A stretch of DNA of 64,000 bases from Octopus vulgaris (Eukaryota), in contig OX597827.1 in the NCBI GenBank assembly GCA_951406725.2, positions 23,684,001 to 23,748,000 of the forward strand, in the 5' to 3' direction. The position numbers were made by a program, and so were the translations under genes. Every line of letters begins with the position of its first letter. The first letter of the stretch is position 1. Positions 650-45,043 of the stretch are shown piece after piece. Under the pieces are notes generated by a model. That model saw nothing but the letters and a program-made list of their open reading frames with translations, made no database searches and was not told the DNA's origin.

Positions 650-695
650 ACCACAACGTTTCGGCTGATTTACTCTCCAGCCTTCATCAGGTGTC
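650..695 (-). ncRNA. Minimal type I hammerhead ribozyme (Penelope-type)
   Basis: Minus strand: GACAC-CUGAUGA-A-GGCUG gagaguaaau CAGCC-GAAAC-GUU|GUGGU. Loopless palindromic stem III (ACGU). Decayed inverted copy at 1611-1657 (+). Confidence 0.75.
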
Positions 696-40110: not shown

Positions 40111-40181
40111 CTCCCCAGCGGGGAATCGAACCCCAGGCTCCCGTGTGACAGGCGGGATACTTACCACTATACTACCAAGGA
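40111..40181 (-). pseudogene. tRNA-Asp(GTC), probably a pseudogene
   Basis: Minus strand reads TCCTTGGTAGTATAGTGGTAAGTATCCCGCCTGTCACACGGGAGCCTGGGGTTCGATTCCCCGCTGGGGAG, close to metazoan tRNA-Asp. A and B boxes present, T5 terminator about 13 nt downstream. One C deleted and a C-A mismatch in the anticodon stem. Confidence 0.8.
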
Positions 40182-41861: not shown

Positions 41862-43330
41862 TTAATAATAATAATAGGCCTGAAATTCAGTGGGAGGGGA
41901 CTAGTCTATTTCATTGACCCCAGTGTTTCACTGGTACTTAATTTATCAACCCCAAAAGAATGAAAGGCAAAGTTGACCTCGGCAGAATTTGAACCCAGAA
42001 TGTAGCGACAGGCGAAATACCCCTAAGCATTTCATCCAGTGTGCTAACAATTCTGCTTGCTCACCGCCTTTCTACCAGTTCAATAATAACAACAATATTT
42101 TGTAAGAAGAATTTTTGTAATGCTTCTTTCTTCTATTTCCAGGTCAGCATTTGGACCATAATCGCCATAAATGGTAACAAAGACGAAATCAGTTTTGTCA
42201 GCAGCAAAAAGTGAACATTTGTAATATGAATTCATCCACAACAACATCAGCATCAAGAAGACGTACTTACAACATGATCAGCCGATTTGTTCCCATTAAA
42301 TCCATTAACAAACATTAAATTCACAGTAACCTCACAAACATTTAAATAACCGTTATCAAGGTCACTCATGTTCTTGTTGCCAACAAACATTAAAGCAATT
42401 ACGAAAGCTAAAAGAATTACAGAAGACTCATATTTGTTGTCATTTTAAAAGCAGGGATGGATCACCAGCAGATATATCTAATTCGGTCATATTTTGGATC
42501 TCAGTTTTCTCCGTTTCCTTCTAAAATATTTTGATGTTCATATAATCAGAGATTAACAAGGATCAATGGAAGCTCCCATGTTCTTTTTTTAAAACTCAAT
42601 TACATTCTGTTCTGTTTTATGGTGCAATTATTTAAAGGAAAGATGTCATTGGTGACCGACATTGTGTGTAGCTATACTTATGGGCGCCAAACATTAACAC
42701 TCCCTTCACAAGGGAAAACAAAATCTATTTCTAACTCCATTTGCTAAAATAATGCAAAAAATGTTTTGATGTTTTTCATATATAAAGAACTAATATATAT
42801 TTATACTCATATATTTGTATAATATATATATACATATTATATACATATATATATATACACATCTTAATTTACGTACATACAGCCATATATATATTTATGT
42901 ATATGTGTATTTGTGTATTATATCATACAGATTCATGTAGTCACATGTATTTTTCCAAAACTTACTGTTTTATAAATTTGTCTCAATCTTTTCCTAAGAC
43001 TGACCAGTTTATGAGTTAAAAAACTAAAATTATAGCAAAGAAAAAAAACGAAATGATTGTTTTATACATTTGATATATTTTAATTTGTATTTTTTTCAAC
43101 AGAGCTGTATATTTGCTGGTTCAAATATATTTTATATACAGTTTGATAGCTCTATATATATATTTTGATATATTCTTTGGCATTTCTTGTACATTTTCAT
43201 TGAAATATCAAGATAAAGTATCATTGCTTCTCAAAAGTGAGTGATTGTATTAAATAACCTTTTATCCTATCTATAGACCCACTCACCCCCGGCATCTATT
43301 TTCTTATTTGTCTATCATTTATCTGACAAA

Positions 43331-43978
43331 ATGACTAGTCCAGCCCCAGAAAACATTCCTGTTGAGCCAAAATCTCCAGCCAGGTCCAGAACTGAGAGTC
43401 TGAACACTTCTTCAAGTGTTGGCAACCTCAGATTCATCAATGATGAACTACGATCGCATGTCACCAAGTTGCGTAACCAACTAGAAGCTGAGAAGGGCAA
43501 CCTGAAGCAAGCCCATCGGCAGAAAGTTCTTGACATTAAGAATGTACGGGAACTGGAACAGAAAAAAACATTGGCAACAATCATAGAACTGAAGAAGAAA
43601 TTCCACGAAGAGAAAATCAAAGAGATAGAGAGTTTACGTGAGACAATTAGTCAGAAACTAGAATTAGAGAAGAACAAATGCCTGAAAGTGAAAGACACAG
43701 AAATGACAAAACTACGACAGGAACTGGACGTGAAGGAGAAGATGCTGAACAAGCTGTTGTCTCAGACCAACCAGAAGACGAATAATGATCAAATTAATGT
43801 AAAACTCTTGGATGAACTTAGCGAATTAAGGAGTACGAAACGACAGCTGGAAGAGTCCCTGTCGCAGGCAACAGTCATTGAGAAGCACCACAGTGAAAAT
43901 CTGAAGAAACTGTGCAGCAGTTATGAATCAGAACTGGTGAGGGTTCGAAGAGAAGCCCACATGGAGATACGCCACATG
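43331..43978 (+). CDS. First coding exon of a long coiled-coil protein, JAKMIP (Janus kinase and microtubule-interacting protein)-like
   Basis: Only long complex ORF in the window (216 codons up to the donor). E/K/L-rich heptad pattern; LRFINDELRSHVTKLRNQLEAEK resembles the JAKMIP N-terminus as recalled. Ends at a strong phase-0 donor ATG|GTAAGT (43979). Candidate upstream acceptors: ttctatttccag at 42142 and ttttttcaacag at 43102. Confidence 0.8.
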
Positions 43979-44320
43979 GTAAGTAAAAATTTCACATGAT
44001 TTATTTCATATCTTTCAATGTTTTTGTCTAAGTTCAAATCATTGGAGCACTACAAAATGTTTTCCATACTGATCATCTCTGGATCTCATCAGTTGACCAT
44101 ATATACATATATATATATAAAATATAAATATAAATGATGATGATGAAATATATATATATATATATTTATATAGTAAAAGCAATTAAGATTCAAGTCAGTT
44201 CTAATGAATTCACTTGAATGCGGTACTTAACTTAGATGCACCAGAAAACTATATGGTATTAACCATACAATAATGTGGGGTGATTATAAACGAGAAAAAA
44301 GCAACAAGAATGGATTAGTT

Positions 44321-44411
44321 TTTTAGTACAATTGTTTCATACAAAGACAAGCTTTATTAAAAGCTGCAAATATTGCAGCAAATACAAGTGTCCCGTACTC
44401 ATCAGCTAAAA
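44321..44411 (-). ncRNA. Type I hammerhead ribozyme, inverted twin of 44626-44716
   Basis: Reverse complement of the + strand copy, no differences seen by eye. Confidence 0.85.
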
Positions 44412-44625
44412 CACATATGAGTTCTCCAAACATCCTAGTGGGTGAGGCTACACTCATGAAGTATCGGAGATAGTTCTATAAAAAGCAAATTTAGGTTGTA
44501 AGCGGACTTCCAAAGTTCTTTAATGATGATGCACAGTCTTATAACAAGTTGCTTTTTATAGAACTATCTCCGATACTTCATGAGTGTAGCCTCACCCACT
44601 AGGATGTTTGGAGAACTCATATGTG

Positions 44626-44716
44626 TTTTAGCTGATGAGTACGGGACACTTGTATTTGCTGCAATATTTGCAGCTTTTAATAAAGCTTGTCTTTGTATGA
44701 AACAATTGTACTAAAA
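44626..44716 (+). ncRNA. Type I hammerhead ribozyme, canonical core, branched stem II
   Basis: UUUUAG-CUGAUGA(44632-38)-GUACGGGACA...UGUCUUUGUAU-GAAAC(44699-703)-AAUU-GUA|CUAAAA. Stem I UUUUAG/CUAAAA; stem III palindrome ACAAUUGU. Confidence 0.85.
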
Positions 44717-45043
44717 AACTAATCCATTCTTGTTGCTTTTTTCTCGTTTATATTTATATATATATAGCTTTATCTGAGCTGTAATTCTCTGGATCATGCA
44801 CCTTTTGACATATTCTTACTCATTTTGTACATATTTTGTATGATGGCTGAGTTTGGTAAATGTTCAGTGAGGTGCCATTCTTTACATTTTCTTCAACCAC
44901 ACAAAATTATACAAGTTTTGTGTAATGTAGCACATGTAATTATTTATTTGTAATGTGGTTCAAAGTGGAGTGCTACTGAAACAATTGTCACCAACATTAA
45001 ACTTACGCTGCACTGATATATTCATTTTCATCTTCATTGTTGT

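Follow-up and report, generated by a model that had tools for sequence, protein, structure and literature searches.

The window, a 64,000-nt stretch of Octopus vulgaris contig OX597827.1 (positions 23,684,001 to 23,748,000), contains a coding exon of a probably JAKMIP-like gene and, shortly 3′ of it, a folded-back repeat insertion. The features are collected in Table 1, numbered as in the window. The exon is a 216-codon open frame closed by a putative splice donor GT at 43979; in three relatives that are 71-74% identical to it the conserved part stops at the same donor and continues as VSSK. Across the genome JAKMIP_CC3 is matched nowhere but 87 and 92 kb downstream, on the exon's own strand, with 33.1 bits for the match at 87 kb against a cut-off of 30.2. 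It is this downstream domain that carries the family assignment; a Pfam search of the exon alone gave no match, and its atlas lead is only 0.89. A search for a full-length host protein found none, and a crude scan over 40 kb for the next exon gave no result. JAKMIP-like appears a reasonable label for the host gene, and its placement on the plus strand in the initial annotation agrees with a conserved exon running to the donor and with the strand of the JAKMIP_CC3 matches. Of the sampled words of 43300-45000, a fraction of 0.44-0.53 occurs in runs that are guessed to be RNA. Compared with public DNA runs, the window shows single-base differences at 43846 (G>A, in the exon; X1 and X2) and at 44802 (C>T, in the flank; X3 and X4).

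The initial annotation described perfectly complementary arms of about 204 bp around a 60-nt spacer, some 300 nt after the donor. Direct comparison of 44285-44488 with 44549-44752 bears out the arms, which are exact reverse complements (204/204), and the distance, the left arm beginning 306 nt 3′ of the donor GT. Accepting a single mismatch (44489/44548) widens the arms to 207 nt (44285-44491 and 44546-44752). When folded computationally, the 501-nt region gives one long hairpin at -376.7 kcal/mol (z = -52 versus 100 shuffles). The arms are indeed separated, but not by unique DNA: genome search finds 44492-44545 contiguous with the arm in most other copies, and this so-called spacer is further sequence of the left element copy. 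Element sequence also extends ~115 nt to the left of the arm pair, to about 44170. Judged by these alignments, the insertion is a 266-nt minus-strand copy with a tail of ~115 nt, placed head to head with a 207-nt plus-strand copy inside (TA)n.

Table 1. Features of the exon and of the insertion downstream of it, in window coordinates
Feature	Position	Strand	Basis
Coding exon of JAKMIP-like gene, 216 codons, predicted coiled coil	43331..43978	+	Open frame; three relatives; JAKMIP_CC3 downstream
TA-rich microsatellite, left half of putative insertion target	44099..44171		Tandem repeat 44099-44172; family copies end in (TA)n
Element tail, about 113-120 nt, with TA obscuring the left edge	44172..44284	-	Bases 1-120 past the 5′ pseudo-LTR in near-full copy L055, 97%
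Long arm, last 266 nt of Hydra-clade element, including spacer 44492-44545	44285..44550	-	95% to positions 3934-4198 of L055 unit
Predicted hammerhead fold of long arm, antisense in host transcript	44321..44411	-	Mirror of 44626-44716; core at 44327-44405
Head-to-head junction, imperfect 5-nt overlap of arms	44546..44550		0-13 nt overlap in 16/19 other inverted insertions
Short arm, last 207 nt of element, 5′-truncated, without tail	44546..44752	+	96% to 3993-4198 of L055 unit; 97-99% to best other genomic copies
Predicted type I hammerhead fold, sense in host transcript	44626..44716	+	Motif layout and folding
TA microsatellite, right half of putative target	44753..44766		Sequence

A genome search with 44492-44752 yielded 1,659 candidates; the 40 that were scored are for the most part 95-99% identical over the arm. 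An exact 21-nt core pattern had 626 genome matches (none for the reversed control). Upstream of this sequence, long copies have a 3′ UTR of ~1 kb, then a GIY-YIG nuclease and then a reverse transcriptase (RT); the RT motifs FDI, PMGS and YRDD are followed by VIY..Y(I/L)G, placing RT together with GIY-YIG, the latter C-terminal, in a single ORF. The Pfam match to GIY-YIG (E = 5e-4, 20.8 bits) is just below the 22.6 cut-off, and every element copy that was read has stops or frameshifts. The near-full copy L055 has a unit of 4,198 nt; a partial pseudo-LTR is followed in it by the tail, then the ORF, then another pseudo-LTR. In this tandem arrangement the tail follows the pseudo-LTR and precedes the ORF, which starts some 40-50 nt past the tail.

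For the clade we used the Hydra motif list in section 11 of PMC8557442 (RWK, DKT, CxCX5C, no CCHH, CxxC, CxH and (TA)n). RRIRWKTY and ADKTG (RWK; DKG changed to DKT) occur in four of the six copies checked (L055, L063, L072 and L076), the other two starting further in. Copy L033 shows the linker CNCRIRSKC (CxCX5C), VIYKCTITTENNKFFYIG, CQLCSMETYE, LNN and CIH, with no CCHH and with CxxC and CxH, around conserved E and N, near the end; the GIY-YIG core of the element has one Cys only. Nearly all flanks of the 20 inverted insertions considered below are TA runs, and the family shows the pseudo-LTR tandem, the inverted 5′ copy and the one-sided tail. At 4,198 nt, the L055 unit is longer than the <3 kb that PMC8557442 gives as a tendency of the Hydra clade, not a criterion. 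The arms, spacer and tail, with the clade placed by motifs, are 3′-end (pseudo-LTR) pieces of a high-copy Hydra-clade Penelope-like element. The family adds to a known clade, and its arrangement has been reported before; the supplement of PMC8557442 has Hydra-1_Obim in Octopus bimaculoides. The Neptune clade was ruled out, the CCHH motif and the CX2-5CxxC linker being absent. A second Penelope-like family, with a 516-codon open frame containing RT and GIY-YIG and with a CSC-X5-C linker, was seen at L031:4198-5745 (minus strand), ~0.7 kb from a copy of the present one.

Each arm contains the hammerhead motifs CUGAUGA (44632-44638), GAAA (44699-44702) and a GUA site, mirrored on the minus strand in the long arm. 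The core layout predicts cleavage at 44710|44711, the cut site given initially. In the predicted sense fold, helix I pairs 44626-31 with 44711-16, the core occupies 44632-38, helix II starts from G44639.U44698, and helix III lies at 44702-09. One fold of this kind per arm, with the core CUGAnGA, GAAA and UH and with helices I-III, is what a type I hammerhead has, and to this extent the two canonical hammerheads of the initial annotation stand. The word canonical does not: pair 10.1-11.1 is G.U in place of G-C, helix II is not short but encloses ~50 nt, helix III is the palindrome ACAAUUGU, and an Rfam search returned no hammerhead match at the gathering score or at E <= 10. Across 37 copies the core letters are near-invariant, 96% of helix cells are paired (39-54% in slid controls), and pair 10.1-11.1 is G.U in 33, A-U in three and G-C in one. 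These copies are 92% identical, and covariation among them comprises 0 two-sided changes and 11 further pair types, with a score not above shuffles; motif logic and one-sided changes are what argue for the fold.

Folding gives helix III +1.4 kcal/mol as a monomer and -8.4 kcal/mol as an 8-bp dimer helix. The active fold, in predictions that leave out tertiary contacts and magnesium, has a share of 2e-3 for 44620-44722, 7e-6 for 44600-44740 and 4e-8 for the whole short arm, and nil once the antisense arm is present. The active fold would cost about 128 kcal/mol in the full hairpin, so that the sense ribozyme is predicted to be sequestered, as had been proposed. A scan of 144 kb of the locus with a descriptor that is not exhaustive found one intact sense-strand hammerhead, the one inside the hairpin. 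With one sense motif per transcript the inverted pair cannot dimerise in cis, and cutting by the ribozyme likely depends on another copy on the same strand or on the element's protein. Comparable single motifs are described as inactive in vitro in PMC4209133. The hammerhead is best seen as a passenger of the pseudo-LTR, predicted to be near-silent here with or without the hairpin.

Other repeats were noted at the locus. In the same gene span, a small repeat with a short hammerhead-like core, in spaced inverted pairs whose sense arms have altered cores, occurs at window positions 655-690 (minus) and, with the window's numbering continued beyond its end, at 91791-92200 and 121435-121865 (L084 and L087). 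Beside a TA run 23 kb downstream, a LINE-like fragment is enclosed by a perfect inverted pair of 116 nt (L059, 67528-68100 in the continued numbering), and a tRNA-like match of 37.5 bits at 40111-40181 (minus) is probably a tRNA-derived repeat.

Inverted pairs are common in the family. Among 20 loci selected by their ORF (20 of 40 ORF matches, chosen towards the more diverged), 12 have an inverted 3′-end copy abutting the 5′ end. Eight of 28 other loci selected by the arm have such a copy joined head to head, two of the eight being one duplicated event, and several more arm-selected loci have partial inversions. On the two largest contigs, C1 and C2, 98 exact matches fall into 77 clusters, comprising 18 head-to-head pairs, one tail-to-tail pair and one direct pair where 0.11 pairs are expected randomly; the 18 are a lower bound, as an exact match was needed in both arms. 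Arm lengths run from 93 to 4,135 nt across the family. The 20 inverted insertions, the present one among them, never have the tail on both sides: a script puts it on exactly one side in 17, a reading of the printed flanks in 19. Their arms overlap by 0-13 nt in 17. The other 17 pairs have 51 mismatches in 4,200 nt (1.2%), 14 of them in one pair and probably from a misaligned end. At this rate the probability of 0 mismatches in 192 is about 0.10, and the pair at L021 is also perfect. Perfect arm identity falls within the family range, at its young, most identical end, although the right junction occurs in runs under three organism labels, a weak observation. Together these could also mean homogenisation of the arms. 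The inverted pair is a routine footprint of the family, not a locus-specific device. An inverted 5′-truncated copy with a one-sided tail is typical of such elements according to PMC8557442, a head-to-head inverted pseudo-LTR with a 15-bp overlap is described for Adineta Penelope insertions in PMC3846280, and PMC4209133 describes hammerhead motifs 100-700 bp apart on opposite strands.

Some family loci depart from the usual build. One inverted insertion is present three times at ~3.1-kb spacing in a local tandem duplication (G000:C8:61481721-61488541). The intervals C1:196081321-196081639 and C2:147499218-147499378 comprise a single tail-to-tail pair and a single cluster in which three cores are spaced by 60-80 nt; two of these cores are on the same strand and could form a dimeric ribozyme. 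At L013:1762-1919 an inverted arm has a ~140-nt internal deletion whose downstream edge is <=2 nt from the predicted cut site; this is one case with short microhomology and possibly chance.

The locus is very probably a 5′-truncated, two-armed Hydra-clade Penelope-like insertion in a TA microsatellite just 3′ of the JAKMIP-like exon, the hairpin being a likely by-product of insertion with no selected host role. The insertion steps proposed here are borrowed from a Poseidon element, of another clade, studied in vitro. The element nuclease would cut both strands of the AT-rich target, a step inferred from the element of PMC11167929. On uncleaved element RNA, each free target end would then prime reverse transcription at either of two fixed start sites; the two sites would be the tail end and the tail-less end, giving a tail on one arm. 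Both copies would stop early, and their truncated 5′ ends would be joined via a few bases of overlap. For the anole element in vitro, PMC11167929 describes cutting of both target strands at AT-rich DNA and their extension, two internal RT start sites that define the tail, and uncleaved RNA as the main template. Both arms here span the cut site, continuing 42 nt or ~160 nt past it, so their template would have been uncut at the ribozyme (or religated). PMC3846280 offers an alternative, self-priming on an antisense template, and the present data do not separate this from two-end priming.

An assembly or amplification fold-back would account for arms identical at 204/204 positions, and no contig bridged the inner junction 44546-44550 in four runs (X1, X3, X6 and X8), contigs breaking in repeats. 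Such a fold-back would mirror the flank, however, while here the tail is on one arm only and the flanks differ. Dozens of family loci have the same build with slightly diverged arms, and in all four DNA runs there are contigs with the element's terminal 19-30 nt joined to the unique right flank, though under a 31-letter bridge rule this is weak. The arm asymmetry and the family pattern make an artefact unlikely, and we put its probability close to negligible. We give equally little credence to a separate small element, be it a retrozyme, a MITE-like palindrome or a microRNA precursor, in place of a truncated autonomous retroelement. The insertion is non-coding, ~580 nt long and hairpin-shaped, with hammerheads, all of which would suit a small element. 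Yet its inner ends differ from copy to copy and its outer ends are fixed at two family termini, in long copies its sequence runs on without a break into the 3′ UTR and ORF, and Rfam microRNA matches are far below the gathering score. The non-LTR retrozyme was rejected on that continuity with a coding element and on the lack of head-to-tail tandem units at the locus.

A different role for the hairpin was proposed initially: the fold-back would be retained because it masks a harmful sense ribozyme, and ADAR editing or unwinding would gate cleavage or steer editing of the adjacent exon. With the host on the plus strand, the minus arm precedes the plus arm and the antisense copy would be transcribed first, as that proposal has it. 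The hairpin dominates the fold, 134 adenosines are inside the duplex, and PMC5625713 describes very high hyper-editing in octopus and heavy editing of lizard Penelope repeats. That the scan of 144 kb found no intact sense hammerhead other than the paired one is also what tolerance predicts (n = 1), and the tolerance model is favoured by a preprint (10.64898/2026.07.22.740005) describing retrozymes as depleted in Xenopus introns. However, the order of the arms is automatic, because any head-to-head insertion gives it on either strand, and the geometry is routine and strand-symmetric. Little needs masking, because a lone motif adopts the active shape with a predicted frequency of only 2e-3 to 4e-8, and similar monomers remained uncleaved in vitro (PMC4209133). 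With the motif predicted to be almost silent even without the antisense arm, the hairpin does not seem to explain why the insertion is tolerated. Modelled editing does not free the ribozyme: with all adenosine pairing in the antisense arm removed the hairpin still leads by ~31 kcal/mol, and editing at random would affect five adenosines of the core as well, so gating of cleavage is unlikely by folding energy. Nor is promotion of editing in the adjacent exon favoured, the longest perfect complementarity between exon and element being at most 9 nt. The duplex is not special, for the same gene span contains a 112-nt palindrome and three further inverted pairs, spaced and 116-160 nt long. In the literature searched, with most subscription papers outside the search, we found no account of a host gene regulated by a hammerhead fold-back. 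We consider this role very improbable. A broader proposal also strikes us as highly unlikely, namely that paired insertions self-mask their ribozyme and make an ADAR substrate, that selection keeps pairs in sense introns, and that they serve as self-muting editing hubs, the present copy tuning cleavage or editing of the JAKMIP-like pre-mRNA. On the favoured reading, the 204-bp duplex would probably undergo ADAR editing, as other repeat hairpins do, if the intron is transcribed, and the protein would be unaffected.

The present insertion is one of hundreds of copies and has little significance alone. It warns that, in such genomes, a pair of inverted hammerheads is an insertion footprint. The family is a clean data set on Penelope-like insertion, with two fixed ends, one tail and short overlaps, and also informs the origin of long editable intronic duplexes. 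If paired copies were enriched in sense introns, the finding would gain in weight, as retroelement insertion geometry would be tied to RNA editing.

The element resembles the Hydra clade as described in PMC8557442 in its RT followed by GIY-YIG, in RWK, DKT, CxCX5C, CxxC and CxH with no CCHH, in its (TA)n targets, in the hammerhead within the pseudo-LTR, and in being 5′-truncated, next to an inverted copy, with the tail on one side. It differs in its unit of ~4.2 kb, the clade being generally under 3 kb and Hydra-1_Obim 2,507 bp (compared by description, not sequence), in long Asn-rich stretches in the ORF and a 3′ UTR of ~1 kb, and in a hammerhead with a G.U closing pair and a long helix II. 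Its tail of ~115-120 nt compares with the 30-40 bp given for Penelope-like elements. With the metazoan pseudo-LTR hammerheads of PMC4209133 it shares the type I fold, a longer helix II, a weak palindromic helix III suited to dimers, and opposite-strand pairs a few hundred bases apart; unlike them, it has G.U for G10.1-C11.1 in 33/37 copies and an inner hairpin in helix II, and its helix III could give the 8-bp dimer helix of -8.4 kcal/mol. PAc, the Poseidon element of the green anole (PMC11167929), and the Adineta Penelope insertions (PMC3846280) are alike in having two fixed 3′ ends separated by a tail, an AT-rich target, an inverted pseudo-LTR placed head to head with an overlap of a few bases, and copies that span the ribozyme, consistent with an uncleaved template; they belong to a different clade, and in the present element the ORF begins past the tail and not within the ribozyme. 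The ADAR hyper-edited repeat hairpins of PMC5625713 are, like this one, long near-perfect self-folding duplexes of repeat origin, a likeness drawn here from sequence.
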